The notes under the pieces were generated by a model. That model was given only the letters and a program-made list of their open reading frames with translations. It was not told the DNA's origin and did not search any database. This document shows, piece by piece, positions 6,107 to 42,840 of a stretch of 44,904 nt of DNA. The DNA comes from an uncultured Ignavibacteriota bacterium. Lineage in GTDB: Bacteria; Bacteroidota; Ignavibacteria; UBA10030; UBA8401. The DNA lies in the NCBI GenBank assembly GCA_903907305.1, contig CAIVNT010000208.1, positions 1 to 44,904 of the forward strand. The letters run 5' to 3'. Position numbers and translations under genes: made by a program. Each line of letters starts with the position of its first letter. Position 1 is the stretch's first letter.

Positions 6107-8395
6107 TTACAACTCATATTCGACGCCGAAGATCGGCAGAAGATTCCACTGGTAGATCGTATCCTGCTTCCCCTTTTTTTCATTCCAGAAATATACCGCG
6201 ACATTCTTTTGATTGTACGCATTCCATGCACTGAGGTAAACGACAAGATTGGAATGCTCGGAATGGAACCGCTTATCGAACCGGACATTCAGTGAATGAT
6301 AGGCGGGATACCGTTCTCCGTTGATGCGCGCCGGATCGAGAACGGCACGTTTTTCCGCCGCTGAACGTGTCAGATCAAGAGGCGTGAATGGAGTTCCGCC
6401 GGCGAATATCCACCGTGCGCTGAATTCCCATTCTGCGTTCGGCTTATAACCCCCCTCCACACTTACGATCATCTGATTGTCGAATACGCGCCTTCTCCAG
6501 AGACCATCTGCACCCTGATATTCTGTGCGGAAGAGTGTTACACTCGCGAGTCCGTAAAAATCCGCCGCCAGTTTCTTCTGCAATGTCAATTCAAGACCGC
6601 GGGAACGGGCCTTGCCGCTGTTCGATAACTGACCGTGACTGAAGTAGAGTCCTCCGCGGTAGAACATCTCGTCCACCAGAAAGAGTGACGGATCGGATGG
6701 ATCGACCGGAAAATCGTAGTATTCCTTTTGATAGATCTCGGCTGTGAATTTTGTCTCTTCATTCAGCAAATGGTCGACACCGGCGATGTAGTGGACAGCA
6801 TACGGATCGCGAAGTTCCTTATTCCGAGCATCCTGCGAAAGGAGAGAGAGCGGCATATTCTGATAGAACATTCCGGACGACATATTGAATGTTGTGACAT
6901 CGCTGAGTGCAAGGGAGAGTGATGCGCGCGGAGAGACCGTCATCCGGTCATTGTAGGAAAAATAATCCGCCCGTGTGCCGACGGTGAATGTCAGCAGTGA
7001 GAACGGATGGACGATGTATGTAATGAAAGCGCCGAGTTTTGACGCGTTGATCTTGTTGTTATTTGCTGACGCAGGGGAAGAGTCCCCGACAGCATTGGTG
7101 AAACTACCGAACGCGTTGTCATATTTTTCCATGAACTGTTTTGTTTCGATGCCGAATTCCAGCGAATGCACATCCGACAAACGGAGCCGATTGCTGTTGC
7201 GCAGTGAGACTGCTGTCTGCGTGGAATGATTCTTCACGATCGGCAGACCGGTATTCGTCTCAAAGAAATCCTCTTGTGCTTTTGTTGTCTGCACACCAAG
7301 CGAAGTGTTCGAGTAGAAGTCGCTGCTCCACAGCGCACGCCAGACGATTCCGCCCGCATTCTGGTAGATGTCCTGATTCCCGTAGAAGAGCATATCGTTC
7401 TCTTCTGCGACGGTGCGGTCGGGGTTATTGTGATCATCACCCCCCAAAAACACGAGACTCAATTTGTGATGCGGTGAGAGATCGTAGACGATCTTTCCTT
7501 GCACATCGCCGTATTGCGGAGCCGCCGTTGTGCCGATGTCGAACATCTTCACCAGATACTCGAGATAACTTCTCCGGACCGAAAGGAGGAATGAACCATG
7601 TTCGTCGAGCGGTCCTTCAACCACCCCGCCGAATCCCATCACATTCAGATCGAGCTGTCCTTCGAAATTCTCGCGATTGCCTTCGCGCATGGACATCTGC
7701 AGTACGGAGGAGAGTTTATCGCCGTGACTTGCCGAAAATCCGCCGGCAGCAAAATTCACTTCATCGATAAGATCGATATTCACCATGCCGATCGGTCCGC
7801 CGGTCGCCCCCTGCGTGGGAAAGTGATTGATGTTCTGTATCTCAATACCATCGAGAAAGAATGCGTTCTCGAGCGGACTTCCGCCGCGGACGATAAGACT
7901 GTTGGATTGGTCGTTCACTTTGGCGAGACTCGGCAGACCCATGACCACCCGGCTGATATCTCCGCCGGAACCCGGCGCACGGCGGATCTCCTCCGCGCTC
8001 AGCGCTGTGATGCTCACCGGCTGAACATCGTTCGTATGGAAATATCCTGCAGTAACGACTACCTGATCGCTTTCCACCGTCTGTTCGGAGAGTTCACCAG
8101 TGACCGTTGTTGTGCGTTGAGAACGGATGATGATATCAGTCTTCGTAATGGTCGCATACCCGAGCATGCGAAACTGTAAGGAATAATTTCCGATAGGAAT
8201 ATTCTTGATGACGAACTTTCCGTCCGGATCGGTCACCGCGCCGAGCGAAGTATTTATGACAATGATATTCGCGCCGACGAGTGGGGAGCGGGTGGCCTGG
8301 TCAAGTGCGGTCCCTTCGACTGAGCCGGTATATTGCGGCTGCGAAAGAAGAATTCCGGAGCAGAGGATGAGGAACAATGCAACAGTGCGTTTCAT
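6107..8395 (-). CDS. TonB-dependent receptor with N-terminal carboxypeptidase-regulatory-like domain
   Basis: GTALDQATRSPLVGANIIV...DPDGKFVIKNIPIGNYSL (CarboxypepD_reg), plug domain (IRRAPGSGGDISRVV, LIVRGGS) and a C-terminal aromatic barrel end ...VEYEL. Confidence 0.9.
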   Translation of the reverse strand: MKRTVALFLILCSGILLSQPQYTGSVEGTALDQATRSPLVGANIIVINTSLGAVTDPDGKFVIKNIPIGNYSLQFRMLGYATITKTDIIIRSQRTTTVTGELSEQTVESDQVVVTAGYFHTNDVQPVSITALSAEEIRRAPGSGGDISRVVMGLPSLAKVNDQSNSLIVRGGSPLENAFFLDGIEIQNINHFPTQGATGGPIGMVNIDLIDEVNFAAGGFSASHGDKLSSVLQMSMREGNRENFEGQLDLNVMGFGGVVEGPLDEHGSFLLSVRRSYLEYLVKMFDIGTTAAPQYGDVQGKIVYDLSPHHKLSLVFLGGDDHNNPDRTVAEENDMLFYGNQDIYQNAGGIVWRALWSSDFYSNTSLGVQTTKAQEDFFETNTGLPIVKNHSTQTAVSLRNSNRLRLSDVHSLEFGIETKQFMEKYDNAFGSFTNAVGDSSPASANNNKINASKLGAFITYIVHPFSLLTFTVGTRADYFSYNDRMTVSPRASLSLALSDVTTFNMSSGMFYQNMPLSLLSQDARNKELRDPYAVHYIAGVDHLLNEETKFTAEIYQKEYYDFPVDPSDPSLFLVDEMFYRGGLYFSHGQLSNSGKARSRGLELTLQKKLAADFYGLASVTLFRTEYQGADGLWRRRVFDNQMIVSVEGGYKPNAEWEFSARWIFAGGTPFTPLDLTRSAAEKRAVLDPARINGERYPAYHSLNVRFDKRFHSEHSNLVVYLSAWNAYNQKNVAVYFWNEKKGKQDTIYQWNLLPIFGVEYEL

Positions 8396-8587
8396 GGGAT
8401 AACCTTGTGAATGTTTGAAAAAGTCACAACATGAATAGTGTTGTGAAAAATTACACTACAAAGTTACATCACGGGAGGAAGGATTGCGCTTGAACCGATG
8501 GGTTTGAACGGGGGATTGAGGTCCAATCCCGTCGGGATGGACGGATGGTTTTTTTTGAGATAATTTCAATAAAACAAAGCCATTGTC

Positions 8588-8647
8588 TCTCGCAAAGGCG
8601 CAAAATAAATGTAAATTTTTCCTTGGCGACTTTGCGTCTTGGCGAGA
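8588..8647. repeat. Imperfect inverted repeat (arms TCTCGCAAAGGCGCAAA / TTTGCGTCTTGGCGAGA, 15/17) with a 26-nt spacer
   Basis: Read directly from the sequence. Same arm family as 15230-15314 (TTTGYGYCTTGGYG). Confidence 0.7.
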
Positions 8648-26425: not shown

Positions 26426-27355
26426 CTATTGAGAATGGATGTTGCTTGGTACGATAAAAGTTTTTCCGGGGATGTTGTTCGTGAATCGTTCAATAATCTT
26501 CCGGTCCTGCATTGTCACGAATACATCTGTTCCGGAGGGGCCGCCGAAGACGAGATTACTGCAGTTCTTTCCCTGCAACATGATCTCGCGAACAAGTTTC
26601 CCCTCTGGTGAAAGGACGGCGATGGTCCCTTTGCCGTACCGTGTAACATAGAGGTTACCGTTCTTATCGCATTTCATTCCGTCCATGCCGAAATCGTTGA
26701 ATTGATGGAAGAGAGTCTTCCCGGAAATATTTCCTGCTTCATCAACCGAATATTTCCAGACGCAGCGCTGTATACTTTCGTTCACATACAATGTCTGTTC
26801 GTCAGGACTCAGTTCGATGCCGTTTGTTGTTCCCATCGAATCTTCGAGCAGATGCGATGAACCGTCCGGATCGATGCGCCACAGTTTTCCGGTATTCGTC
26901 TTCCAGTGCGGATCGGATGCAAAGAGCTGATCGCGCTTATCGATGCAGAGATCGTTCGGCTGATTGAACGAATCGTTGTGGGAGAATGCGGTCACCTGTT
27001 TTGTGGTCATATCCACTTTCAGCACATTATGCATCGGATAATCCGCCAGGAACATATCTCCATTCGAATTGAATTTGATGCTGTTCGCAACGCTTCCCGT
27101 GGGAAGTTCAACGAACAGCGACGCATTCCCGTTGTTATCGACGGTTCCGATGGTTCCGTTATGATTGAAGTTTACCACATACAGCATTCCGTTCTTGTCG
27201 AATGCCGGTCCTTCGATACTTCCGGTGAACAGATTCTCCGCGATGAAATCCGTTGACAGTGTCCCAACCGATGATTGAAAGATCGAACAGGAGGAAACGA
27301 CGATCGTGAAAAGAAAAAATCCAATGATTCTCATGTGTCCTGCGGGTTTATACAT
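26426..27355 (-). CDS. SMP-30/gluconolactonase/LRE-like beta-propeller lipoprotein
   Basis: Lipobox VVSSC; repeated EGPAFD, NGI, PNDL and GG...LFVT motifs of the six-bladed propeller. An alternative start at 27334 would remove the overlap with the NUDIX gene. Confidence 0.8.
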   Translation of the reverse strand: MYKPAGHMRIIGFFLFTIVVSSCSIFQSSVGTLSTDFIAENLFTGSIEGPAFDKNGMLYVVNFNHNGTIGTVDNNGNASLFVELPTGSVANSIKFNSNGDMFLADYPMHNVLKVDMTTKQVTAFSHNDSFNQPNDLCIDKRDQLFASDPHWKTNTGKLWRIDPDGSSHLLEDSMGTTNGIELSPDEQTLYVNESIQRCVWKYSVDEAGNISGKTLFHQFNDFGMDGMKCDKNGNLYVTRYGKGTIAVLSPEGKLVREIMLQGKNCSNLVFGGPSGTDVFVTMQDRKIIERFTNNIPGKTFIVPSNIHSQ

Positions 27356-27884
27356 GGAAGAGTGAGAGGGCTACAGCGGTAGACCACGAAAGGACCTTGA
27401 ACTCGCCGTCCAGCAGCAGCTGCATCATTTCGGCGCGGGAGAGGATGACGATCTCCTGTTCTTCAAGATCATCCGCGATGATCTCGCCGACCTGATGTGC
27501 TTCGCAGGCGAGGTAGAGATGGGCGAATCCGTTTCCGTGGTTTCCGTCGCACGGGAATTTCCCGAGAGAGATCCACTGGCGCGCTTCGTACCCGAGTTCT
27601 TCGCGGAGTTCGCGCTTTGCGCAGGCGAGCGGATCCTCGTTCGGTTCAAGATAGCCTCCAATGGGAGCAAAGGAGGTCCCTTCTGCAGCATACTTCGTTT
27701 GACGGAAGCAGACGAAATTCTCATCTTCATCCTGCACCACCACGTTTACATAGTCCGGAGATACGAGCCAGCTCCAGTTCTCAAGGATCTTGCCGTCCGG
27801 CAGTTCGATGGTATGGTCTTCCACTTTAAGCCATTTGCTGTGATCGAGGATGGTCGTCCGTGCAAGAGTCTTCCAGGGCTTCAT
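27348..27884 (-). CDS. NUDIX hydrolase
   Basis: Nudix box GGYLEPNEDPLACAKRELREELG. Confidence 0.85.
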   Translation of the reverse strand: MKPWKTLARTTILDHSKWLKVEDHTIELPDGKILENWSWLVSPDYVNVVVQDEDENFVCFRQTKYAAEGTSFAPIGGYLEPNEDPLACAKRELREELGYEARQWISLGKFPCDGNHGNGFAHLYLACEAHQVGEIIADDLEEQEIVILSRAEMMQLLLDGEFKVLSWSTAVALSLFHV

Positions 27885-27968
27885 GATGATTTATTGTCGG
27901 TGAAAAAAATGAATTCAGTATCAGTGGGATAAGATATGCGAAGAGAGTGAAAAATCAAACGAAGAATT

Positions 27969-28481
27969 TTATGGAACGTTCGCATACAACAGCGCGTCGG
28001 TGATCATTCCGTCTTTCACCACCGCACGTTTCAGACGCGCTTCGAGCACGTAGCCGTTCTTCTCCAGCACGCGGGCCGATGCAAGATTCCGGTCGAACAC
28101 ATCGGCATAGATCCGGACGATATCGAATCGGTCGAATCCGTATGCCGTGACCGCACCGACCGCTTCGGAGACGATACCGCGTCCCCAGAATTCTTCTCCG
28201 AGCCAGTAGCCGATCTCCATGGACTTTCGGTAGACATCATCCTTCGCGACAAGACCGATGCTTCCCACAGCGACACCGTCCACGGTGATGGCAAAAACGG
28301 TCTCATGAAGGTAAAGTGAAGCGTGCTGCACCCATCGCATCGCATCGCCGCGAGTGTAGGGATGAGGAAAATGGTCGCGGACGTTGATCCAGATCTTCCG
28401 GTTGTTCGCGTGTTTTTCCAGTGAGGGTTCGTCGCCGAGTTTCCACGGCCGAAGCACGGAATTTTTGAGCCGGAGCTCCAT
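27969..28481 (-). CDS. GNAT N-acetyltransferase (RimJ/RimL-like)
   Basis: IGYWLGEEFWGRGIVSEAV acetyl-CoA motif A, with GNAT length and topology. Confidence 0.85.
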   Translation of the reverse strand: MELRLKNSVLRPWKLGDEPSLEKHANNRKIWINVRDHFPHPYTRGDAMRWVQHASLYLHETVFAITVDGVAVGSIGLVAKDDVYRKSMEIGYWLGEEFWGRGIVSEAVGAVTAYGFDRFDIVRIYADVFDRNLASARVLEKNGYVLEARLKRAVVKDGMITDALLYANVP

Positions 28482-28484
28482 CCG

Positions 28485-28928
28485 TCAGACCGCTACTTTC
28501 ACGATTGCTTTTTTTACGGCCGTCATCGGCGGCTGAGGAGCGTGTGCATCTTCGGGAAAGAGGACTGCAAACATATCCGCGGCGAGGTGAACAGTAAAGA
28601 GAGGTGGATCATTATAGAACGACACATCGTCGCTCCCGTTATATTCCATCGCAACATTCTTACAGGAATCAATGTCGTGCCATTCCAGAGGAAAAGAACC
28701 TTCGATAGCGAGCTGAATGTCGATATATTTTCTGTGTGTCTCGAGCTTCCGGCGTTCATTTCCTGTGTTGTCACTGGCGATGATCAGATAGATGTCATCT
28801 CCTTCAATGTCATGGCGTCCTTCAGCAAGTAAACGGAGATCTGTTGTTCTGAGATAATCAAACGCATGCTTGAAGCTGGAGTGCATATTAAAATATTTTT
28901 CTGCCCGTGAGAGGTGATCGAGTATCAT
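28485..28928 (-). CDS. YhcH/YjgK/YiaL (DUF386) family cupin-like protein
   Basis: ETHRKYIDIQLAIEG...FAVLFPEDAHAP signature of the family. Confidence 0.8.
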   Translation of the reverse strand: MILDHLSRAEKYFNMHSSFKHAFDYLRTTDLRLLAEGRHDIEGDDIYLIIASDNTGNERRKLETHRKYIDIQLAIEGSFPLEWHDIDSCKNVAMEYNGSDDVSFYNDPPLFTVHLAADMFAVLFPEDAHAPQPPMTAVKKAIVKVAV

Positions 28929-31162: not shown

Positions 31163-31166
31163 TTCT

Positions 31167-31193
31167 GTAGGACGAAGCGTCGCTTCGTCCTAC
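31167..31193 (+). terminator. Palindrome GTAGGACGAAGCG-T-CGCTTCGTCCTAC followed by GGTTTTATAATTT; probable terminator of the M14 gene and a REP-like unit
   Basis: Read directly from the sequence. 13-bp arms, 5 nt after the stop codon. Confidence 0.65.
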
Positions 31194-31233
31194 GGTTTTA
31201 TAATTTCCGTTTTTAGGAGCAGTACAAAGGCAA

Positions 31234-31258
31234 GGGACGAAGCGTCGCTTCGTCCTAC
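31234..31258. repeat. Second copy of the GGACGAAGCGTCGCTTCGTCCTAC palindrome
   Basis: The 24-nt core is identical to 31170-31193. Lies 21 nt upstream of the dCMP deaminase start. Confidence 0.8.
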
Positions 31259-31278
31259 AATATTACATCGGAGAGTGT

Positions 31279-31719
31279 ATGAGTGACAAACGTGTATCGT
31301 GGCACAAATATTTTATGAACATCGCAGAGCAGGTGGCCACACGCAGCACCTGCAGCCGGAAGAATGTCGGCGCGGTGATCGTCCGCGATAAGACGATCCT
31401 CTCCACCGGATACAACGGCAGTCTCCGCGGCGCTCCTCACTGCGATGATGCGGGACATGATATGGAGAACGATCATTGCGTACGGACGGTGCATGCCGAA
31501 GCGAACGCGGTCGCACAGGCGGCGAAACACGGCGTGCGCATTGACGAAGCGGAGATCTATGTAACGGCATCTCCTTGTTTGACCTGCTTCAAACTGATCG
31601 CCAATTCCGGAATCCGAAAAGTATATTTTATGGAATTCTACCGCGATGAACGGATCACCGAATACGCGCGTCAATGCGGAGTGACATTGGTGTTCATGGG
31701 GGAGAAGAAAACTCTATGA
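31279..31719 (+). CDS. dCMP (deoxycytidylate) deaminase, ComEB-type
   Basis: WHKYFM...A..S.RSTCSR..VGAVIV, HAEANA (zinc His/Glu) and PCLTC (zinc Cys pair). Confidence 0.9.
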   Translation: MSDKRVSWHKYFMNIAEQVATRSTCSRKNVGAVIVRDKTILSTGYNGSLRGAPHCDDAGHDMENDHCVRTVHAEANAVAQAAKHGVRIDEAEIYVTASPCLTCFKLIANSGIRKVYFMEFYRDERITEYARQCGVTLVFMGEKKTL

Positions 31720-31753: not shown

Positions 31754-32473
31754 CTATTCCGCTAATCTTTTTTTCATATCGCCTATGCGGACCTGATCGC
31801 TGGCGAGAGTCTGCGGTAGGAGGAGGGTCTCAGTAAATATTTTTTTCCCTTTTTCTTTCTGACCTGTATCAAAATAGACCAGACCGAGTTCGTAGCGGTG
31901 CCGGATGATATTCGGTGCAAGACGGATCGCGGTCAAGAGCATTTGTTCCGCTTCGGCATATCCACCTCGAGGCAGACTGCCCAGCAGCATACCGGCCAAT
32001 TTTCTTTCGATCCAATTGATGTTTCCGAGTGCGCGGTAGAATGTTCCGTAGATGGAGTACGCAACATCATTGTTCGGATCGAGTTCGATCGCTTTGTCCA
32101 ACGACCGTTTAATGGAATTACAGAGTTCCACCTTCCTCCTGCTCCCCTCCGTGATTGCCTGATATCCCATCGAGACGGCATACCAGCACTGAACATTGGA
32201 ATTCATTGAATCAGCCTTCAATGCTTTCAGGGATAGATCGTATGCAGCATGGTAGTATTGTTGTTGAGATTCTCCGCTGATATCGCCCAGGCAGATATAT
32301 GCACGGACGGAGCGCCAGTATGCTTCGCCGCTGTTCGGATCCTGTTCAATCGATCGGGAGTACGATTGGATCGCTTCGTGGTACCGCTGTTCACGGAACA
32401 ATTGATCACCCGCAGAGATGAGAAGCGGATCTGGAACGGACATCAGGAACATGAGCGGGAAAAGCAAGTTCAT
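31754..32473 (-). CDS. TPR-repeat protein, last gene of the operon
   Basis: TPR-like repeats (YHEAIQSYSRSIEQDPNSGEAYW, ...AIELDPNNDVAYSIYG...). The ATG at 32473 overlaps the upstream stop as ATGA. Confidence 0.65.
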   Translation of the reverse strand: MNLLFPLMFLMSVPDPLLISAGDQLFREQRYHEAIQSYSRSIEQDPNSGEAYWRSVRAYICLGDISGESQQQYYHAAYDLSLKALKADSMNSNVQCWYAVSMGYQAITEGSRRKVELCNSIKRSLDKAIELDPNNDVAYSIYGTFYRALGNINWIERKLAGMLLGSLPRGGYAEAEQMLLTAIRLAPNIIRHRYELGLVYFDTGQKEKGKKIFTETLLLPQTLASDQVRIGDMKKRLAE

Positions 32474-33261
32474 TCCTCCGTCCGTTCCACTCTTTTTTTG
32501 GAGAATGGTCGGAACGCGAACCAATGCTGCGAGAAATATCCTTGCGGGAAGTTCGATGTCGAGAGTCCGTACGCTGCGGGTTTTTCAGGACGGGGAAGAT
32601 ACGCGGTGCCGAACAGCCAGTCCCACACGGCGAACTTTGTGGAGAAATTGATGCTGTTCCCAATCACTTTTGAATGATGCCAGCGGTGCATTTCGGGACC
32701 GTTGATGACGTACTGCAATGCGCCGGAGCGGACATCGATATTCGAATGGATATACATTCCCCACACCGTATCGACGATTCCTTTGATCAGCACCATTTCC
32801 GGAGCGGCGCCGAGAAGGATGATCGGCAGGAACTCGATCGTTTGATTGACCACGATCTCGAGAGAATGGGAACGTGCGCCGGCGAGCCAATCCACATCGC
32901 CGACAGAATGATGCGCTTCGTGGATGCGGTAGAGATATTTGTTGCGGTGCTGCCATCGGTGGAAGAGGTAAATATAGAGGTCGTGCGTGATGAGAAAGAG
33001 CAGGAACTGCAGCCACACAGGCCATGAAGTGATGATCTGAAAGCGGGAGATACCGGTCTGTCCGTCCAGCCAGTGAATGAAACCGAAGATCACCCAGCTG
33101 AGAAGATAACTCTGGAAGATGGTGTACATGCCGAGATCGGTCCAGAATCCTTTCCGGAACAACGGCTGACCGTCGGTGTACGGAATGAGCCGTTCACAGA
33201 CGATCATGATGACCGCGGACGAAACGATGATCACCGGCGAGAGGACTTCGAGACTCATCAT
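32470..33261 (-). CDS. Fatty-acid hydroxylase / sterol desaturase superfamily membrane di-iron enzyme
   Basis: His boxes HDLYIYLFHRWQH, HEAHHS and HRWHH, with 3-4 TM helices. Confidence 0.85.
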   Translation of the reverse strand: MMSLEVLSPVIIVSSAVIMIVCERLIPYTDGQPLFRKGFWTDLGMYTIFQSYLLSWVIFGFIHWLDGQTGISRFQIITSWPVWLQFLLFLITHDLYIYLFHRWQHRNKYLYRIHEAHHSVGDVDWLAGARSHSLEIVVNQTIEFLPIILLGAAPEMVLIKGIVDTVWGMYIHSNIDVRSGALQYVINGPEMHRWHHSKVIGNSINFSTKFAVWDWLFGTAYLPRPEKPAAYGLSTSNFPQGYFSQHWFAFRPFSKKRVERTEE

Positions 33262-34198: not shown

Positions 34199-35020
34199 TT
34201 ACCAGGCGGTCCAGCCGCCGTCCACAACTAGATTTGCTCCGGTCATATAATTTGATGCATCACTCGCGAGAAAGACCAGCGCTCCTTTATAATCCGACGG
34301 TTCAGCCATCCGTCCCAGCGGAGTCCGCTTGGAATAATTCTTCACAAAATATTCTTCCTGTCCTGCGCATACTCCGCCGGGACACAGAGCATTCACACGG
34401 ACTCCTTTGTTTCCCCAATACGCTGCAAGATATTTTGTAAAGGAGATCACCGCACCTTTTGTGGCGGGATATGAAGGCGATTTGAAGAACGGCTGCGTTC
34501 CATCCGGACGAAGATACAATGATTGATCAGGAGCGACGAGTCCGTATGTGGAAGCGACATTGATGATGCTTCCGGTGCCGCGCTCCGCCATGACGGAACC
34601 GAGCACCTGAGAACAGAGGAACATTCCGGTGACATTCACATCGAATGAGCGCTGCCACAGTTCGAGCGGATAGGATTCGAATTTTGATTGCTCGGCGGCG
34701 GATTCCGGTGATTCGAATTTGTCGTTGATGGCAGCGTTGTTCACGATGATATCGATGTAATCGAAGAAACCGAGAACACTCGAACGTAATTGTTCAACGG
34801 AAGAGCGCTGAGTGATATCCGCACCGATGCCGAGTGTTTTTGCTCCGGTGTTCAGGTTCAATTCATGCGCGAATTCAACACAAGCTTCGGCGTTCACATC
34901 CGTTACGACCACGTGTGCACCTGCTTCGGCGAGTGCATAACAATGCTGTCTGCCGATCAGGCCGAGGGCACCGGTGATAATGGCAACTTTTTCATTCAGC
35001 GAAAACATCTCCATCGTCAT
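34199..35020 (-). CDS. Short-chain dehydrogenase/reductase (PtmA-like SDR)
   Basis: TGALGLIG cofactor motif, NNAA, and the S...YxxxK triad (YPATK). Confidence 0.9.
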   Translation of the reverse strand: MTMEMFSLNEKVAIITGALGLIGRQHCYALAEAGAHVVVTDVNAEACVEFAHELNLNTGAKTLGIGADITQRSSVEQLRSSVLGFFDYIDIIVNNAAINDKFESPESAAEQSKFESYPLELWQRSFDVNVTGMFLCSQVLGSVMAERGTGSIINVASTYGLVAPDQSLYLRPDGTQPFFKSPSYPATKGAVISFTKYLAAYWGNKGVRVNALCPGGVCAGQEEYFVKNYSKRTPLGRMAEPSDYKGALVFLASDASNYMTGANLVVDGGWTAW

Positions 35021-36351
35021 ACCGCCTTCTTCGGTTTCATGTTGAAGTTGCTCGTCTTCCGAAAGACCGGTTCCACCGGCTCGCCGCGGAGCATCGAACG
35101 GACATTCTTTCCGTCGACCGCCGACTTCAGCATCGGCAGGATCTCACGGTAGGCCGATAATGTGTATTCGATATCGGCATCGGTATGGGAGAGGCTCATA
35201 TTGTGGAATCCGGTCCACAGGATGCCGCGTTTGATCAGTTCCTGTTGGACGAATGACTTCATTTCGAGAGGATTACCGAATGACGCATCGAATGTGACGA
35301 TGGTTCGACAGCCGAATCCGGAACAGCGTGCGAACGATACACCGTGGTCATCCGCGATCTGATTGAACGCATGCTTCAGTTTGGTCCCCTGTGCAGCGAG
35401 ATATTCAGGGACGCGCCGGTCCAGCAATTCATGGATCGTCGTCTGCGCTGCGGCAAGGGAGAGCGCTTCACCGCCGAATGTGGTAAAGAAAAATACTTCC
35501 TTTTCCAACAACTGCATCACATCGGCTCTGCCGGTAAGGATAGAAAGGGGCATACCGTTCGCCACCGCTTTGGAGAAGCACGCCAGATCGGCTTTCACGC
35601 CGAAATATTCCTGCGCTCCGCCGACGGCCAGCCGGAATCCCGTCCACATCTCGTCGAAGATGAGCAGTGTGCCGTTTTGTGTGCAGACCTCTTTCAGTTT
35701 GTGGAGAAAATTATCTTTCGGTGCTTCGAAGACAATTGGTTCAAGGATGATACATGCCGTATCACTGTCGATGGAATCGATCACTGATTGAATGTCGTTG
35801 TAATTAAAAGTGTATGTCAGATCCTGCGTCTGCTGAGGAATGCCTTTGTTCCGGTCTGTGACGCCGATATACCAGTCATGCCATCCGTGATATCCACAGC
35901 AGAGCACTTTATTCCTTCCGGTGAATGCGCGAGCCAGGCGGACGGCCGCTGTTGTCACATCGCATCCTGTTTTACTGAAGCGGATGCTTTCGGCATTGGG
36001 AACGACCGTGCGGACGAGTTCAGCCACTTCCACTTCCAGCGGATGCATCAAAGAAAATGTGATACCGTCCTCAAGCTGACGTTTGATGGCATCATTTACG
36101 GGTCCATAGGAATATCCCAGCGACAGAGGACCGACACCCATAGTAAAATCAAGGAATTCATTTCCGTCCACATCCCATACATGCGAACCTTTGCCGCGGG
36201 AAAGATATTTCGGTGCGACCCCTTTCACATATTGGCCGGGACCTTTCGCGAGCGTCTGTGTGACTGCGGGAATGAGTCCGAGAGCACGGATGTAGAGTTC
36301 ATCGGACTGTTCTATGACGGGATACTCTTTATTGAATGCGACAATATTCAT
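35017..36351 (-). CDS. Class-III (HemL / glutamate-1-semialdehyde-aminomutase-like) PLP aminotransferase
   Basis: GSHVWDVDGNEFLDF, FDEMWTGFR, and the PLP lysine in FSKAVANGMP. Confidence 0.9.
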   Translation of the reverse strand: MNIVAFNKEYPVIEQSDELYIRALGLIPAVTQTLAKGPGQYVKGVAPKYLSRGKGSHVWDVDGNEFLDFTMGVGPLSLGYSYGPVNDAIKRQLEDGITFSLMHPLEVEVAELVRTVVPNAESIRFSKTGCDVTTAAVRLARAFTGRNKVLCCGYHGWHDWYIGVTDRNKGIPQQTQDLTYTFNYNDIQSVIDSIDSDTACIILEPIVFEAPKDNFLHKLKEVCTQNGTLLIFDEMWTGFRLAVGGAQEYFGVKADLACFSKAVANGMPLSILTGRADVMQLLEKEVFFFTTFGGEALSLAAAQTTIHELLDRRVPEYLAAQGTKLKHAFNQIADDHGVSFARCSGFGCRTIVTFDASFGNPLEMKSFVQQELIKRGILWTGFHNMSLSHTDADIEYTLSAYREILPMLKSAVDGKNVRSMLRGEPVEPVFRKTSNFNMKPKKAV

Positions 36352-36362
36352 AGTACTCCTGA

Positions 36363-37325
36363 TTAGATGATCGGCTCGACTTGAGTTTCAAAAACATGGA
36401 AGTCGATTCCTTGTTCCAATTGATTGAGATGAACGATCACTCTTGCGGCGATCTGTTCACCGGTGAAACCTTCATACGTGAGTACATCGTGCAGGAGCGC
36501 AGGTTTGAACCACTGATGTTCTAGTGCGATGGGGAGAACATACGCCGTAACAGAATGCTTCAGGAATAATTCTCCAATGATGGAGAATAATCCTCCCGAT
36601 ACGAAATGATCTTCAACCGTAACGATCAATGCGCATTCTTTCGCTGCAGACAGGATCACTTTTTCATCGATCGGTTTCACCGTCCGCAGATTGATGAAGC
36701 GGACAGAGAAACCTTTCTTTTCTAGAATCTTCTTTGCGAACCACGTTTCGCGGTTCATGAATCCATACGTGATGAATGCGATATCCATTCCGTCGCCGAG
36801 CACTTCCGCTTTCCCGATTGCGAACGGTTCGTAATGTTTTTCCACCGGCTGCTGAGTGGTGTAGCGGATATACCACGGGGAAGGATCGTCCACGATCGAA
36901 GGAAGTCCTGAAATAAGTTCTTCGTGATCTGCAGGACAGAAGACCTTCATGTTCGGGATACCGCGCATCAGGGAAACATCCTCGATCGCCTGATGGGTCG
37001 GACCGTTTGCTTCGGAGAGGAATCCGGGAACTCCACCGACAATCTTCACCGGAAGGTTTCCTATTCCGACATCCGTGCGGATAAATTCGAATGCTCTCAG
37101 CGTAAGAAAGGTTGCCAGTGCATGCACGATCGGCACTCGACCCCGAAGTGCCAACCCTGCGGCTGCACCGATCATCGTCTGTTCGGTGATACCGACATCG
37201 ATGAAGCGATTCCCTAAAATTTTCGGCAGATTGCGGATGGCAGCGCGGTTTTCGGCTGTCATCACGACCAGACGTTCATCCCGCGCAGCGATCTCCTGCA
37301 GTTTCTCTTCATAGTTCATCTTCAT
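36363..37325 (-). CDS. Transketolase, C-terminal (pyrimidine-binding plus C-terminal domain) subunit
   Basis: FIDVGITEQTMIGAAAGLAL, GPTHQAIEDVSLMR and RTVKPID. Confidence 0.9.
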   Translation of the reverse strand: MKMNYEEKLQEIAARDERLVVMTAENRAAIRNLPKILGNRFIDVGITEQTMIGAAAGLALRGRVPIVHALATFLTLRAFEFIRTDVGIGNLPVKIVGGVPGFLSEANGPTHQAIEDVSLMRGIPNMKVFCPADHEELISGLPSIVDDPSPWYIRYTTQQPVEKHYEPFAIGKAEVLGDGMDIAFITYGFMNRETWFAKKILEKKGFSVRFINLRTVKPIDEKVILSAAKECALIVTVEDHFVSGGLFSIIGELFLKHSVTAYVLPIALEHQWFKPALLHDVLTYEGFTGEQIAARVIVHLNQLEQGIDFHVFETQVEPII

Positions 37326-38179
37326 CTCACCATAAGTGTTTCGGATGTTAGGATGCTTTCCTTCTCTCCGTGCAATTCATCAAGGAGCATTTCTACTTCT
37401 TCCGCCGTGAAGTTGACGAACCAACGGTCCGCCCGCCGCTCGATGCTCGGCAGTCCTTTTCCACGGACAGTATCTGCGATCACCACGCTCGGCTGATCGG
37501 TGCTGAACGGAAGCCGAGAAAAGGTCTGCTCCATCTGATCAAAATCATGTCCGTTGATCCTCTTTACCCAGCAGCCGAAAGCCTTGAATTTTTTGTCGAT
37601 GGATTCCAGAGGAATGAGTTCTTCCGTTCGGATGTTCGCCTGGAATTCATTCCTGTCGACGATGATCACCAGATTGTCCAGCTTGTACGCACTGGCAACA
37701 AGCAGACCTTCCCATATCGTCCCTTCGTTCAGCTCACCGTCACCCACAATCACAAAGACCTTCCCTTCACCCTGTTTCATTTTAATATCGAGCGCGATAC
37801 CGATACCGACGGAAAGCAGATGACCGAGCGAACCGGAGTGGAATTCAACACCGGGCACGGCACGGTTCGGGTGCCAGTAGATGGAATCATTCGTTTTCAA
37901 ATGATTGGCAAGCCGTTCTTTTTCGATGAAACCGAGTTCAGCGAATGTTCCATACAGCGCCGGAACATCGTGTCCTTTGGACAGCAGCAGATAATCCCTT
38001 GACGGATCGTTGAGATTCTCCGGAGAGATATTCAGCGTCTCGGAGTACAGATAGACCAGCAGGTCGGCGCAGGAGAGTGAGGCACCGATGAAGCATCCTC
38101 CGTTGGTCGCCATACCGATGATATGTTCGCGTACGCGGAGCGCCAGCAGTTCAAGTTCGATCGTGCGTTGTTCGTTCAT
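37322..38179 (-). CDS. Transketolase, N-terminal (TPP-binding) subunit
   Basis: LSKGH, SGSLGHLLSVGIG, and the GDGELNEG TPP/Mg motif. Has a 4-nt overlap with the C-terminal subunit gene. Confidence 0.9.
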   Translation of the reverse strand: MNEQRTIELELLALRVREHIIGMATNGGCFIGASLSCADLLVYLYSETLNISPENLNDPSRDYLLLSKGHDVPALYGTFAELGFIEKERLANHLKTNDSIYWHPNRAVPGVEFHSGSLGHLLSVGIGIALDIKMKQGEGKVFVIVGDGELNEGTIWEGLLVASAYKLDNLVIIVDRNEFQANIRTEELIPLESIDKKFKAFGCWVKRINGHDFDQMEQTFSRLPFSTDQPSVVIADTVRGKGLPSIERRADRWFVNFTAEEVEMLLDELHGEKESILTSETLMVR

Positions 38180-38185
38180 AATCCT

Positions 38186-38989
38186 CTAGGTAAGTTGTTT
38201 CGTCTCGGCAGCGGAGACGGTTCGCAGTTCACCGATATGGTGGCGGTACCAATTCACTCCGGCGTACCGCGCATTGATCTCGTGGATCTCCGGTTTCAGT
38301 TTCAATAAGGTCAGGATCTCGTGCATGGAGAAGTTCGGACGAAGTCTGTCCCACAGTTCATCATATACCGTTTTGATGAATTCGTAATCCTCTTGAAAAT
38401 CGATCGTCCACCGGTGCGTCATAGAATAATTCAGATCGAGTTCCCATTCCACATTCCCGAGTTTGAACAGTTCGGGATGCTCCCAGATGTACGGGGTCGT
38501 ATGTTCGCGTTCGTAATTCTTTTTAGCGACACGCCAGGCGGTCTCGAGTGTTTCAAATGTCATCAATTCCACATCGTTGCCGTCGGGATAGGTTGCGGGA
38601 TGCAGGTTGCTGACGAAATCAAATCGGCGCATGGAATTCCTCTGGAACCGAAGTATACAGTCGATCACCGCGGGATCGATCAGGGGACAGTCCGACGGGA
38701 TCTTCACCACAATGTCCGCCTGTTCCAGTTTTGCCGCCTGATAGTGTCTGTCCAGAAGATCGGTCGGATGGCCGCTGAAACATTTCACGCCGAGTTTGCG
38801 GCACAGTTTTCTGATCGGTTCGTCGGACCGGTCCGTGGTCGTGGCAACGATGATCTCTGCGGTACCCGAGATGCACCTTACACGTTCGATCATCCTTTGC
38901 AGCAGCGGGGCGCGGGCAAGCGGCAGCAACACCTTGTTGGGAAGGCGTGTCGATCCGGTCCGTGCCTGTATAATAATGAGTGTCTTCAT
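38186..38989 (-). CDS. SpsF-type cytidylyltransferase (CTP_transf_3 family)
   Basis: IIIQARTGSTRLPNKVLLPL N-terminal nucleotide-binding motif; length about 267 aa, as for SpsF-like proteins. Confidence 0.85.
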   Translation of the reverse strand: MKTLIIIQARTGSTRLPNKVLLPLARAPLLQRMIERVRCISGTAEIIVATTTDRSDEPIRKLCRKLGVKCFSGHPTDLLDRHYQAAKLEQADIVVKIPSDCPLIDPAVIDCILRFQRNSMRRFDFVSNLHPATYPDGNDVELMTFETLETAWRVAKKNYEREHTTPYIWEHPELFKLGNVEWELDLNYSMTHRWTIDFQEDYEFIKTVYDELWDRLRPNFSMHEILTLLKLKPEIHEINARYAGVNWYRHHIGELRTVSAAETKQLT

Positions 38990-40050
38990 GATCTCTGCGG
39001 GAACAAGCGTAAGAATTTCGACGGATAGTTCGTCCGGAAGAATCCTTTGAAAAGCCGGTTCTTCGGCTGTTTGAAGTGAAGGATGTTGGTGTGCGGAAGA
39101 TCGAGCACCTGTCTGCAGACATCGGCAATATTCAGTGCTGCACAGTTGTTTTGGATCGGCGTCAGCCGTTTCAGCATCTCCACCGGGAAATTTGAATACA
39201 CTTCTTTACCGAGAGCGAGACCAACGTAGACCGTTGAAGAGAATTGCGTGATGAGCACATCGCAGTTCGCGATCATTTCTTCAGCACTGCCGGAGGAGAA
39301 GACGAGCGCTTCCGGCGCATATTTATTGATCTCGGCTGTTGCGCGTTTCTCGTTCTCGTTCGGATGCAGTTTGAAGATGAGGATCCGTCCGATCGCTTTT
39401 TCCAACGCATCGAGGATGACCGCTTTCCGATTCTCAAATTTCACCGTCTCACGGGAATCGGAAGTACAGACGAGTACAAAATTCTTGTGTGGAAATGAGT
39501 TGTTCAAATATTTGGCGCAGTTGTCAAAATTCGGTATGCCGGTCACGGTCAATTTATCAGAGGCAACCCCTTTGCGGATGAAGAGATCCTTGTATCCTTC
39601 GCTGGCTACACAGAATTTTATATAGGCATCGCTGAGTCCCATCGCCGACGTGCTCGCGGACCATCGCGGCATCAAATGAAGCTTTACCAGATAATACGCC
39701 CAATTCTCGGGATCGGTCATCCCTTCCTGAACGAGAACGATCTTTTTCTTCCTGATATTCTTCGGAACAACGAGATCCGCACACGTCACCACGAGGTCAT
39801 AATGATGCTTCTCTCCACGGAAATCCGCAGCAAGGTCATGCTCTTCAAGATACTCCAGACAGCGTTCAGTGAACCTTCTGCTCATGATCGTCATTTCCGT
39901 CAACCCGATTCTGCGCATAAACTCCACATGACCGCTCGCATAGTATGGCGTGAAGTAACACTCGAATTCTTCCGAGAGATGTTCCGATATTTGATGCATC
40001 TGGGTCGTTTGATTTCGCGAACCGCAGATGAAAAGAATTTTCTTCTTCAT
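38986..40050 (-). CDS. GT-B-fold transferase, TagF-like (CDP-glycerol glycerophosphotransferase family-like)
   Basis: FVLVCTSDSRE (compare LYAPTwR), IFKLHPNE (the K.HP motif) and CDVLITQFSSTVYVG (compare DvLITDYSS). Called from motif resemblance only. Confidence 0.5.
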   Translation of the reverse strand: MKKKILFICGSRNQTTQMHQISEHLSEEFECYFTPYYASGHVEFMRRIGLTEMTIMSRRFTERCLEYLEEHDLAADFRGEKHHYDLVVTCADLVVPKNIRKKKIVLVQEGMTDPENWAYYLVKLHLMPRWSASTSAMGLSDAYIKFCVASEGYKDLFIRKGVASDKLTVTGIPNFDNCAKYLNNSFPHKNFVLVCTSDSRETVKFENRKAVILDALEKAIGRILIFKLHPNENEKRATAEINKYAPEALVFSSGSAEEMIANCDVLITQFSSTVYVGLALGKEVYSNFPVEMLKRLTPIQNNCAALNIADVCRQVLDLPHTNILHFKQPKNRLFKGFFRTNYPSKFLRLFPQRS

Positions 40051-41147
40051 ATGGATGATGGTAATGATGATCGTTCTGTGATCGACACCGGTTCGACCGG
40101 AAGGGTGGAATGACCGTTCTGGGCGCGAGATTCCTCAAGCGCTCCCTGTGTCGCCGCAAGAATCACTCCGACGATCACCCAAAAAAGTTCTTTCATGCGT
40201 TTGATTACAATAAATGCAGCGATGAATGTCCCGGCAGACACGGCATCAATTCCCTGAAAGGCTGCGGAGTAACCTGCATCCATCACCCCGATTCCTGCCG
40301 GAATAAAGAAGGCAACAGAGCGTAACAATGACACGACCGGCTCAAAGACCATAATGGAACCGAGTGCCACAGGTGCATGTACGGCAAAGAGGATCGTCCA
40401 TGTTTCGAGCATTTCCGTTGTCCAGCCGCAGAAGAAGAATATGCATGCGCTCAATCCTTCCTTCTTCCGGTGTGCGATAGAGTCCTTGATGACCCGGTCT
40501 GTTTCAATCAACAAATTTTTATGAGTGCCGAGGAATTGGACCAGAGCCGGTATTGGAATCCTTTGCAGCATACTGAACAAGAAGGAACCCAATCTTCCCA
40601 TTGACAAAAAATATCCCGTGATGCCAAAGAGAAGAAGCAGCGATACACTCAACACAACACCGACAGCTGTCATCATACCGGTCATGGTGCTGCCGAACAG
40701 GATGATCCCCGCCAGCACAGCAAGACCGATATAGAGTGCTTGTGCGATTCCCATGAACATTTTCCTCAAGAGAAGACTGGAGATGATCTCGGGGGTGCCG
40801 AGTGATGAGTACCGTTTCACCAATATCACTTTCACGGATTCACCGATGACCACGCCCGCGGGAATGAAACGGTAGAATGATTCTCCTGCGATATGGATCA
40901 TCAGTAGGCGGAGGAACGGAATGGTATTGATTGAACTATGAAGGATGATACGCCACGCAAGAGTATCGCACAGTGCGCCGATGAGGTAAAAAGAAAGAAG
41001 CAGGGGAGCGATTGCGCCGACATCGGAGATAAGTCCGGCGGTTTCTGTTAGATTAATATTCCGGAAGACGAACAACAGCAGGAGCGATCCCGTAAGGAGC
41101 GGCGCTGTGCGTAGAATGAATGTCGTTACAGTCGATCGATTGTTCAC
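40047..41147 (-). CDS. UPF0104 / lysyl-phosphatidylglycerol-synthase-TM-like ('flippase-like') integral membrane protein
   Basis: About 8 TM helices; AWRIIL...IAGESFYRFIPAGVVIGESVKV pattern of the family. GTG start. Confidence 0.6.
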   Translation of the reverse strand: MNNRSTVTTFILRTAPLLTGSLLLLFVFRNINLTETAGLISDVGAIAPLLLSFYLIGALCDTLAWRIILHSSINTIPFLRLLMIHIAGESFYRFIPAGVVIGESVKVILVKRYSSLGTPEIISSLLLRKMFMGIAQALYIGLAVLAGIILFGSTMTGMMTAVGVVLSVSLLLLFGITGYFLSMGRLGSFLFSMLQRIPIPALVQFLGTHKNLLIETDRVIKDSIAHRKKEGLSACIFFFCGWTTEMLETWTILFAVHAPVALGSIMVFEPVVSLLRSVAFFIPAGIGVMDAGYSAAFQGIDAVSAGTFIAAFIVIKRMKELFWVIVGVILAATQGALEESRAQNGHSTLPVEPVSITERSSLPSSI

Positions 41148-41265: not shown

Positions 41266-41802
41266 CTATTGATTCTTATACAAACGGAAGATATCCTTAT
41301 CAAGGTGTTGGGCCTCGAGGATCATATCGCATACTTCGCGGACACAGCCTTCGCCCCCCTTGCGTTCGGTGACATAACGTGCGATTCGTTTATTCCATCG
41401 GCTTCCGTCCGCGGGTGTTGCGGAAAATCCGGCGGAGGCCATCACCTCAAGGTCGTTAATGTCATCGCCGATATATGCGATCTCATTCCATTCCAGCGAA
41501 TATTTTATCTTCATCTTTTCCACAATCTTGATCTTATTCCGCACCCCTTGATATAAATTGTGGATTTTCAGTTTCTTTGCACGAAGACGGACGATCTCCG
41601 TCTCTTCGCTGGTGACAATGGCGGTAATCAATCCCGCATACCGCAGCAGGGTCAGACCCATTCCGTCCCGCGTGGAGAATTTCTTTTGTTCTATACCATT
41701 CTCACTGTAATACATGCCGGCATCGGTAAGCACGCCGTCCACATCGGTCACGAGAAGCCGTATCTGTTTCAATCGTTTGCTGAGTGATGGAGTGAGAGCC
41801 AT
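41266..41802 (-). CDS. KdsC/YrbI-family HAD-IIIA sugar-acid-phosphate phosphatase
   Basis: LLVTDVDGVLTD (DxDGV), TSE, and YIGDDINDLEVM...G. The ATG at 41802 is preferred over the 41847 track start. Confidence 0.85.
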   Translation of the reverse strand: MALTPSLSKRLKQIRLLVTDVDGVLTDAGMYYSENGIEQKKFSTRDGMGLTLLRYAGLITAIVTSEETEIVRLRAKKLKIHNLYQGVRNKIKIVEKMKIKYSLEWNEIAYIGDDINDLEVMASAGFSATPADGSRWNKRIARYVTERKGGEGCVREVCDMILEAQHLDKDIFRLYKNQ

Positions 41803-41827
41803 GGATCGTTCCTTTGGGAATGAGCTA

Positions 41828-42736
41828 TTATTGTCGTTTGGCAACATGGTATTTCCGTTGTTGCGGTGCGTTCACGCTGACAGCGGTATGTTCAATCTCT
41901 TTCGTTCCGATATGCAAAAGATTGAATTTGCGTTCGGACAGGTCATTCGGAAACATTGTCCCGCCCGCATTCAGGAAGGAGATCTTCTTCCGGTGATAAT
42001 GATGATGATGGTGTAAATGTCCGTGCAGCACCCGGGCGACGGACGATGCATGGAACAATTTAAATAAACGCTTCTTATTCCACAGTTTCATCGTGCTCGA
42101 CTCGATGGCGTGCCATAGCCGTTCAAGATTTCCCGCCGCCTTCTTGGCTTCCATCTTGTTGAAGTGGTGATGGATCAACACGAGTACCGTTTTCCCTTTC
42201 AGCATCTCCCCCGAGAAGATCTCATCGAGTTTCTTCAGCTGCTGTTTTCCCACATCGCCGTTGGAGCCGAGAGGATTTGTCAGTGAGTTCCATTGTGCAA
42301 CGGAATTAATCCCGACCAAAGCGACATCCTTTACCATCTTTACGAATGGAAAGATTGATCCGTTCGAGACATACTTACATCCTTCAAAGGTCTCGTGGAA
42401 TGCGGTGGTAAATTCTTTCACCTTCGATTCATAATCGGTCTTCCTGCAGAATCCCGGGAATGTCAGCACATCTTCGGCATAATACGGCCCGCCGAAAATA
42501 TCGTGGTTGCCGATGGTGACGGTCAGCTTTGCAGGATCAAGATATCCGCATTCACGCAGGATGGAACGTGCGTGGGCGAATTCTTTCGGCTTTGCCTGAT
42601 TGGTGATGTCGCCGGTGATGACGATGTGATCGACCGCGAGGGTCTTGCAGGTGTTGAGGATCTCATAGAATATCTCGGTCCGTTCCGGAAAATGGTCGGG
42701 ACTGAGATGGAGATCGGAAAGATGGGCAATTCGCAT
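41828..42736 (-). CDS. Calcineurin-like metallophosphoesterase
   Basis: MRIAHLSDLH, ITGDITN, GNHD, and the C-terminal LHGHLHHHHH His cluster. Confidence 0.8.
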   Translation of the reverse strand: MRIAHLSDLHLSPDHFPERTEIFYEILNTCKTLAVDHIVITGDITNQAKPKEFAHARSILRECGYLDPAKLTVTIGNHDIFGGPYYAEDVLTFPGFCRKTDYESKVKEFTTAFHETFEGCKYVSNGSIFPFVKMVKDVALVGINSVAQWNSLTNPLGSNGDVGKQQLKKLDEIFSGEMLKGKTVLVLIHHHFNKMEAKKAAGNLERLWHAIESSTMKLWNKKRLFKLFHASSVARVLHGHLHHHHHYHRKKISFLNAGGTMFPNDLSERKFNLLHIGTKEIEHTAVSVNAPQQRKYHVAKRQ

Positions 42737-42840
42737 TTCGGAGTTCTCTGTCAATGACGGGGATAAGATACATCCTGTTTGTCATGAACAGATTATCCAA
42801 ATATTATTATACGATGAAGTAACCGGATCGCGTAACGGTG

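Follow-up and report, generated by a model that had tools for sequence, protein, structure and literature searches.

What does a cell make with a split transketolase, an aminotransferase, an oxidoreductase and a sialic-acid-type synthase encoded side by side? This question is raised by a window of 44,904 nucleotides (the whole stretch of DNA analysed here, contig CAIVNT010000208.1 of assembly GCA_903907305.1) from an uncultured Ignavibacteriota bacterium. A preliminary description had noticed in it five genes for the two halves of a transketolase (TK-N and TK-C), a class-III aminotransferase dependent on pyridoxal phosphate (PLP), a short-chain dehydrogenase/reductase (SDR) and a NeuB-type synthase that would condense phosphoenolpyruvate (PEP), and had likened them to the route to AHBA (3-amino-5-hydroxybenzoate). 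Coordinates re-derived from the window place all five genes on the minus strand with the overlaps and gaps as described: the stop codon of TK-N and the ATG of TK-C are fused as ATGA (a 4-nt overlap), 11 nt lie between the TK-C stop and the start of the aminotransferase gene, the latter overlaps the SDR gene by 4 nt, and the NeuB-type gene follows after a 50-nt gap. The claimed families are all supported by Pfam (Table 1), including the NeuB-type and not the DAHP-synthase fold of the PEP-condensing enzyme. These core five genes sit within an 11-gene co-directional operon with 4-nt overlaps at most junctions. Below we describe how far this cassette is conserved, why its transketolase-like enzyme departs from known transketolases, and which product the genes may encode.

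The gene arrangement is far beyond chance since the same genes recur in the same order in 80 loci from about eight phyla (Bacteroidota, Ignavibacteriota, Chlorobiota, Nitrospirota, Acidobacteriota, Myxococcota, Chloroflexota and Pseudomonadota), with protein identities of 50-79%. The scan used one genome per species and yielded at least 599 relatives; synteny counts refer to the best 80 loci. The recurrent order is GT-B-fold protein, cytidylyltransferase, TK-N, TK-C, aminotransferase, SDR, a HAD phosphatase that is not always there, NeuB and, usually, a membrane hydroxylase. The HAD gene lies between SDR and NeuB in most other loci and upstream in the window, the cytidylyltransferase is syntenic throughout the related loci and the hydroxylase gene is present in 47 of them. 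The suggestion that the genes form one conserved unit with a NeuB-type enzyme was therefore borne out. Within the genus the cassette is accessory and patchy, as a NeuB orthologue occurs in only 6 of 21 genomes (G000, the genome of the window, and 20 relatives); a split transketolase is found in exactly those six. We consider the cassette to be a mobile and widely conserved one, and the five genes are probably its biosynthetic core.

The most unusual part is the transketolase-like pair, referred to here as family A, which we aligned with the housekeeping transketolase of the genome and with PDB entries 6YAK/6YAJ, using E. coli numbering. Its nearest solved structures are 6YAK for TK-N (178.6 bits) and 6YAJ for TK-C (146.2 bits). 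The machinery that binds thiamine diphosphate (ThDP) and metal is kept and is conserved in the orthologues: the motif GDGELNEG, present as first noted, DRN, and GItEQ with the cofactor-activating Glu. Also retained in family A are His66, His100 and His473. Transketolase uses R358, S385, H461 and R520 to bind the phosphate of its substrate and H26, H100, H261, D469 and H473 to bind the sugar hydroxyls (PMC11387542), and these positions determine which acceptor is taken (PMC11387542, PMC5073344). All four phosphate-binding positions are replaced in the window protein and its orthologues: Arg358 and Ser385 are absent, His461 is a Val and Arg520 is not conserved. Of the sugar-hydroxyl set two residues out of five are kept (His100 and His473), with His26 changed to Cys/Phe (GCF), His261 to Phe (RWF) and Asp469 to Asn. 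At least 90% of 39 orthologues share the changes to GCF, RWF and Asn. The split transketolase of Carboxydothermus hydrogenoformans (6YAK/6YAJ; PMC7661550) is divided between two genes in the same way as family A and shares its ThDP motifs, but it carries GHPG, WHG, THAG and GEDG where the cassette enzyme has GCF, RWF, VPG and EANG.

Family scores point the same way, the best transketolase equivalog (NF004559) giving 208 bits for the N subunit and 163 bits for the C subunit against a cut-off of 488. Contig C614 encodes a separate full-length housekeeping transketolase (510 bits), and the genome also has a DXS; the split enzyme is therefore not the sole transketolase of the cell and is an accessory one, as the preliminary description would require. 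As judged from its residues family A is a ThDP carboligase whose pocket has been rebuilt and is free of a phosphate site; it is not a pentose-phosphate transketolase, nor plausibly one of the rifamycin type that would cleave amino-F6P.

Can a cassette do without this enzyme? About 20 of the 80 loci have no split transketolase. In a FastTree phylogeny of concatenated aminotransferase, NeuB and SDR sequences these loci fall into at least two clades (Melioribacteraceae and Ignavibacteriaceae) nested among the transketolase-bearing cassettes. Two Bacteroidota loci (L060 and L072) carry in the transketolase slot a fused transketolase-like protein of about 660 aa, with some 30% identity to the split family A; we call it family B. 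An unlinked family B gene, with 54-59% identity, is present in both Melioribacter genomes and in four of the five Ignavibacteriaceae genomes with transketolase-less cassettes. This unlinked gene is solitary between genes of the opposite strand and its context gives no functional clue. Family B was not found in five transketolase-bearing genomes, nor in the 21 genomes mentioned above. We then counted both families in 61 genomes of one family, a sample taken without a species tree. In the 30 genomes that have the cassette aminotransferase, family B is present in 17, family A is intact in 10 and broken in 2, and 1 genome has neither; among the 31 genomes without it, 1 has family B, 3 have an intact family A, none a broken one and 27 neither. 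No genome of either group has both, so that A and B were never found together in the sample. Such complementarity argues that the transketolase-like activity is part of the pathway and that either paralogue can supply it. Family B retains His26, His261 and His461, and it is without Arg358 and Asp469, as is family A.

Three genomes have family A genes and no cassette aminotransferase; they are also without the NeuB and GT-B genes. At two such loci (L095 8560-16124 and L096 8790-13510) intact TK-N and TK-C genes are directly followed by the gene of a bifunctional acyltransferase resembling OlsF and that of a metallophosphoesterase. This pair also forms the end of the cassette in Ignavibacterium album (L008 14506-17247), and the transketolase genes of L095 and L096 look like deletion remnants because they stand beside genes that end the cassette in other Ignavibacteria. 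The converse situation was seen in two Ignavibacteriaceae cassettes with fragmented TK-N and TK-C genes of family A (L097, genome G033, 6732-8321; L098, genome G041, 6798-8627). Here the aminotransferase, SDR, HAD, NeuB and hydroxylase genes are intact; the remaining cassette genes are intact in L098, and in L097 the cytidylyltransferase (203 aa) and the GT-B protein (307 aa) look shortened. The fragmentation may reflect ongoing loss of the transketolase or frameshifts in the assemblies. Genome G068 holds an aminotransferase relic (G068:C1:84246-85577) with 51% identity and 21 in-frame stops, and its family B gene is open in two blocks with no stops reported. Together the cassettes with a broken family A and the genomes that have family A and no cassette indicate that the link to the transketolase is strong and not absolute.

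The aminotransferase is related to glutamate-1-semialdehyde aminomutase (GSAM), the product of hemL, and the preliminary reading depended on its not being a bona fide HemL. That it might be the HemL of this organism, standing beside sugar genes by coincidence, draws on its being the top match of the genome to the hemL model and on the failure to find any hemL above cut-off in its own 83%-complete assembly. We consider the chance of this negligible. The protein scores 239.5 bits against TIGR00713, whose cut-off is 527.3. Aligned with the true HemL of two relatives it is shorter by 10 residues in the GSAM gating loop and has TLAK in place of SPVR, and both changes hold in 95% of 72 orthologues. 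True hemL genes of relatives score 611-647 bits and are distributed independently of the cassette enzyme: genome G005 has a true hemL (635 bits) as well as the cassette enzyme, and in G009, a 100%-complete genome, the cassette enzyme is present and hemL is absent. HemA was likewise not found in the 83%-complete genome, and the aminotransferase gene is a fixed member of the cassette across the 80 loci. It is 76-77% identical to the proteins of Ignavibacterium album and Chloroherpeton thalassium, and cross-phylum orthologues are 61-78% identical. On these sequence features the cassette aminotransferase is not HemL. Of 13 genomes of the genus, counting G000, only 3 have a hemL gene above cut-off, and the C5 route to haem may have a patchy distribution there, with several genomes without it being 96-100% complete.

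The remaining enzymes point to a sugar acid activated with cytidine monophosphate (CMP). In the synthase the NeuB domain (PF03102, 253 bits, residues 38-274) is the sole domain and SAF is missing; the protein stays below the cut-offs of TIGR03569 (NeuB_NnaB, 243.8 versus 399.65) and of TIGR03586 (PseI, 203.1 versus 340.25). Its relatives in the PDB are SpsE, PseI and NeuB, and a SAF-less relative of 290 aa has been solved as 6NCS. The HAD protein passes the cut-off of TIGR01670 (157.8 bits versus 106.95), which places a phosphate on the NeuB product, and it falls just short of the Kdn-9-P phosphatase equivalog (166.8 versus 180). The cytidylyltransferase has a full-length CTP_transf_3 domain (PF02348, 110.7 bits, residues 5-208), and the top NCBIfam matches of the SDR are sugar-acid dehydrogenases (gluconate 5-dehydrogenase and KduD), all below cut-off.

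Where the activated sugar would go depends on the GT-B protein and its membrane partners. The AlphaFold model of the GT-B protein (pLDDT 89) was compared with known structures by VIA-align, in which UDP-GlcNAc 2-epimerases, NeuC among them, reached Z 17.6 and both polysialyltransferase and TagF reached Z 15.1. The top Foldseek match is a CMP-bound capsule polymerase, and neighbours of the GT-B protein in the ESM Atlas carry Glyphos_transf or polysialyltransferase (polyST) domains. Pfam matches to the transferase and epimerase kinds were both insignificant. QEG and HP motifs are invariant among the orthologues, and we take them to resemble both motifs of bacterial sialyltransferases. The gene is translationally coupled to that of a flippase-like LPG_synthase_TM membrane protein, which favours the transferase reading. 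Based on these models there is a slightly better than even prospect that the GT-B protein is a cytidine-nucleotide-dependent transferase, and a NeuC-like enzyme is a lesser though serious candidate. A homologue of the LPG_synthase_TM protein occurs in about 8 related loci, mostly directly upstream of the GT-B gene. The hydroxylase gene overlaps the NeuB stop codon, and the only NCBIfam match of its product is the ornithine-lipid hydroxylase OlsE (111 bits, below cut-off). In 20 loci, mostly of Bacteroidota (for example L035 14078-14443), a four-helix membrane protein of the SMR family (some 121 aa long, a Glu in the membrane being conserved) is encoded after the hydroxylase or NeuB gene; by analogy with ArnE/F it could be an exporter of a cationic product or a flippase for a lipid-linked amino sugar. 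An OlsF-like aminolipid synthase was considered as a universal partner and rejected, being adjacent in Ignavibacteria only and with no orthologue found in the genome of the window.

How does the cassette compare with known pathways? The iminoE4P/aminoDAHP route to AHBA (RifL, RifK, RifM, RifN, orf15A/B and RifH; PMC8788734) has a similar list of roles: an oxidoreductase, an aminotransferase, a phosphatase, a split transketolase and a PEP-condensing enzyme are common to both. Compared by family, AHBA clusters have a RifK-type aminotransferase and the aminoDAHP synthase RifH where the cassette has a class-III Aminotran_3 enzyme and NeuB. The RifK family is distinct from Pfam Aminotran_3. The cassette oxidoreductase, in the role of RifL, is an SDR (adh_short), and no kinase family is found among the conserved cassette families of the 80 loci, whereas AHBA synthesis has the RifN kinase. 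The phosphatase of the cassette is of a type that comes after PEP condensation and not ahead of it, and the transketolase-like pocket has no phosphate site. The orf15 transketolase is thought to cleave an amino-ketose phosphate (PMC8788734), a reaction that is unlikely for family A as it lacks the phosphate-binding residues and the catalytic His pair. The specific parallel with AHBA that had been proposed is thus not supported at the steps compared, and a loose similarity of roles is what is left of it.

The closest established scheme is the CMP-Kdn route, with the Kdn-9-P synthase BT1714, the Kdn-9-P phosphatase BT1713 and a CMP-Kdn synthetase of Bacteroides thetaiotaomicron, also known from Prymnesium parvum (PMC6200933). 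The cassette follows the same logic with the same three families, a NeuB-type synthase, a KdsC/YrbI-type phosphatase and a CTP_transf_3 enzyme. It differs in its SAF-less NeuB and adds to the set a class-III aminotransferase, an SDR, a transketolase-like ThDP enzyme, the GT-B protein and membrane proteins. For the tailoring steps a precedent is said to have been described by Gattis and colleagues in 2013 in Shewanella, where KdnB reportedly oxidises and KdnA transaminates Kdo before CMP activation to give Kdo8N. Those enzymes are not known to be homologous to the SDR and class-III aminotransferase of the cassette, KdsA takes the place of NeuB, and the route is not known to involve a ThDP enzyme. 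A different precedent is the anisomycin triad of AniP (transketolase-like), AniQ (aminotransferase) and AniN (SDR), in which AniP independently of phosphate makes a hydroxyketone that is then transaminated (PMC11387542). Triad and cassette match in composition, since in both a transketolase-like enzyme without phosphate binders comes with an aminotransferase and an SDR. However the donor of AniP is an arylpyruvate, the product is a pyrrolidine antibiotic, and the anisomycin cluster has neither NeuB nor a CMP-activation module.

From these comparisons the best explanation overall, in which our confidence is evenly balanced, is that a CMP-ulosonic acid would be reached by a phosphate route of the Kdn/Kdo type and tailored by the SDR, the ThDP carboligase and the aminotransferase. 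The general outline of this route is probable: NeuB would join an aldose phosphate to PEP, the phosphatase of KdsC type would strip the terminal phosphate, SDR and aminotransferase would introduce an amino group into the sugar acid, and the amino sugar acid would be CMP-activated and passed to a membrane component. As to the order of steps we tentatively prefer, by analogy with Kdo8N, a tailoring after condensation. Dephosphorylation would free a hydroxyl for oxidation by the SDR, the transketolase-like carboligase would join a two-carbon ketol to the non-phosphorylated carbonyl, and the aminotransferase would aminate the new ketone to yield a chain-extended amino-ulosonic acid. With the phosphate removed before tailoring the later intermediates would be non-phosphorylated, matching the pocket of the transketolase-like enzyme. 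The likeness to Kdo8N would then lie in a free ulosonic acid whose hydroxyl is oxidised and transaminated before CMP activation. Such a late oxidation and transamination had been offered as an alternative in the preliminary description, and it fits the type of phosphatase and the phosphate-free pocket better; the order of the steps is the part that stays conjectural. It is a rather doubtful extension that a higher-carbon amino-ulosonic acid, made by a new ThDP carboligase drawn from two interchangeable transketolase-like families, would serve as the zwitterionic head group of a membrane lipid across some eight phyla of bacteria.

The first idea about the locus, namely that SDR, aminotransferase and transketolase-like enzyme draw on central metabolites to make an amino-aldose or its phosphate which NeuB condenses with PEP to a 4- or 5-amino-deoxy-ulosonic acid, much as iminoE4P leads to aminoDAHP, now seems unlikely, although several observations speak for it. 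The genes for transketolase, aminotransferase, SDR, phosphatase and NeuB are collinear with such a route, the anisomycin triad follows the same order from transketolase-like enzyme to aminotransferase to SDR, the transketolase-like function appears to be required, and a 5-amino product would have the customary amino position of sialic-acid-like sugars. Against this stand the missing AHBA families and the missing kinase. Moreover the KdsC-type phosphatase implies a phosphorylated NeuB substrate, yet the transketolase-like enzyme has none of the four phosphate binders, and family A is without the His pair for cleaving a ketose donor. Less probable still is a decarboxylative reaction in the manner of AniP, where a 2-oxo acid (hydroxypyruvate, pyruvate or the NeuB product) would be the donor and a separate amino-polyol or iminosugar would be built with the help of the aminotransferase and the SDR, as a second building block and not as a change to the CMP-sugar. 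AniP takes 3-substituted pyruvates and a non-phosphorylated aldehyde and is without the same phosphate binders, and His26 and His261, lost in family A, are needed for ketol cleavage and presumably not for decarboxylation. But both histidines are present in family B, the likeness to AniP, AniQ and AniN is one of composition, and the cassette has a single nucleotidyltransferase, so that no separate activation step is visible for a second product. It is finally very improbable that the split enzyme is just an extra, dispensable pentose-phosphate transketolase that boosts a sugar-phosphate precursor. Its absence from about 20 cassettes and its breakage in two genomes would agree with such a role; the seven canonical substrate residues are nevertheless replaced and the replacements conserved, the score on the best transketolase equivalog is 208 bits against a cut-off of 488, a second non-canonical family is present where the split one is missing, and the genome already has a normal transketolase.

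The late-tailoring route that we prefer has its own difficulties. In two genomes (G033 and G041) the family A genes of the cassette are broken and family B was not found, and an intact family A occurs in three genomes that have no cassette. The counts of the two families come from related genomes without a species tree, so their independence is overstated. Since family B keeps His26, His261 and His461 the pockets of A and B differ. By score the GT-B protein is slightly closer to NDP-sugar 2-epimerases than to transferases, and given this likeness the transfer step to a membrane lipid may be wrong. The gene order transketolase, aminotransferase, SDR, phosphatase, NeuB would be more natural for a tailoring before condensation. 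What has been read are genes, and chain length, amino position and step order are all predictions from them.

Table 1. Genes of the operon and its surroundings in the window (positions in nucleotides)
Feature	Position	Strand	Basis
Calcineurin-type metallophosphoesterase	41828..42754	-	Pfam Metallophos
HAD phosphatase, YrbI/KdsC/Kdn-9-P type (ulosonate-phosphate phosphatase)	41266..41847	-	TIGR01670
LPG_synthase_TM (MprF-flippase-like) polytopic membrane protein	40047..41147	-	Pfam PF03706
GT-B-fold protein, 354 aa, no Pfam family	38986..40050	-	AlphaFold model, structure comparison
CMP-ulosonate synthetase-type cytidylyltransferase	38186..38989	-	Pfam CTP_transf_3
TK-N: transketolase-like ThDP enzyme, PP-domain subunit, family A, 285 aa	37322..38179	-	Pfam Transketolase_N
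TK-C: transketolase-like ThDP enzyme, Pyr + C-terminal subunit, family A, 320 aa	36363..37325	-	Pfam Transket_pyr + Transketolase_C
Class-III PLP aminotransferase, 444 aa, GSAM-related	35017..36351	-	Pfam Aminotran_3
Classical SDR oxidoreductase	34199..35020	-	Pfam adh_short_C2
NeuB-family PEP-condensing synthase, SAF-less, 296 aa	33258..34148	-	Pfam NeuB
Membrane di-iron hydroxylase, FA_hydroxylase family, OlsE-like	32470..33261	-	Pfam PF04116
TPR protein, final gene of the local operon	31754..32524	-	Pfam TPR families

Of the outer genes the metallophosphoesterase recurs close to the cassette in Ignavibacteria; its homologues (37-43% identity) lie at the flank of the cassette in 9 loci and are also found in L095 and L096. 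The TPR gene is probably no core member because it accompanies the cassette in just two other loci. A scan for promoters and terminators in the window gave counts no higher than in shuffled sequence. Between the gene of an M14 peptidase and a small open reading frame (31255-31674) there are two copies of a G+C-rich palindrome on opposite strands (31165-31195 and 31235-31255), the first with a terminator-like T-rich tail. A few kb from the sugar-acid operon (26426-28928) the window encodes a YhcH/DUF386 protein, a GNAT acetyltransferase, a NUDIX hydrolase and a lactonase of the SMP-30 type. Relatives of YhcH are associated with sialic-acid operons in E. coli. DNA matching the window was detected in lake-water metagenomes only, in three studies.

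We found no paper describing the cassette when full-text literature was searched for the gene combination, for split transketolases together with ulosonic acids and for neuraminic-acid sphingolipids of green sulfur bacteria, and the product of the cassette is not described in the literature searched. Chlorobium limicola reportedly has an aminoglycosphingolipid with neuraminic acid. The aminoglycosphingolipid itself (Jensen 1991, as cited in PMC11762602) is a possible lead.

What is new here is that a fused family B stands in for the split transketolase in most of the transketolase-less cassettes examined. Both families are altered at positions that engineers mutate for non-phosphorylated aldehydes: S385, D469 and R520 were changed to shift E. 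coli transketolase from phosphorylated to non-phosphorylated acceptors (PMC5073344). These natural changes in the pocket make the transketolase-like families ready-made candidates for biocatalysis. If our reading were correct many environmental bacteria would make a surface or membrane sugar like sialic acid or Kdo via an unprecedented ThDP-dependent step. Carriers of the cassette include cultured Hymenobacter, Mucilaginibacter, Flectobacillus roseus, Ignavibacterium and relatives of the green sulfur bacteria, and since several of them are in culture the question is directly testable by mass spectrometry of CMP-sugars and lipids.

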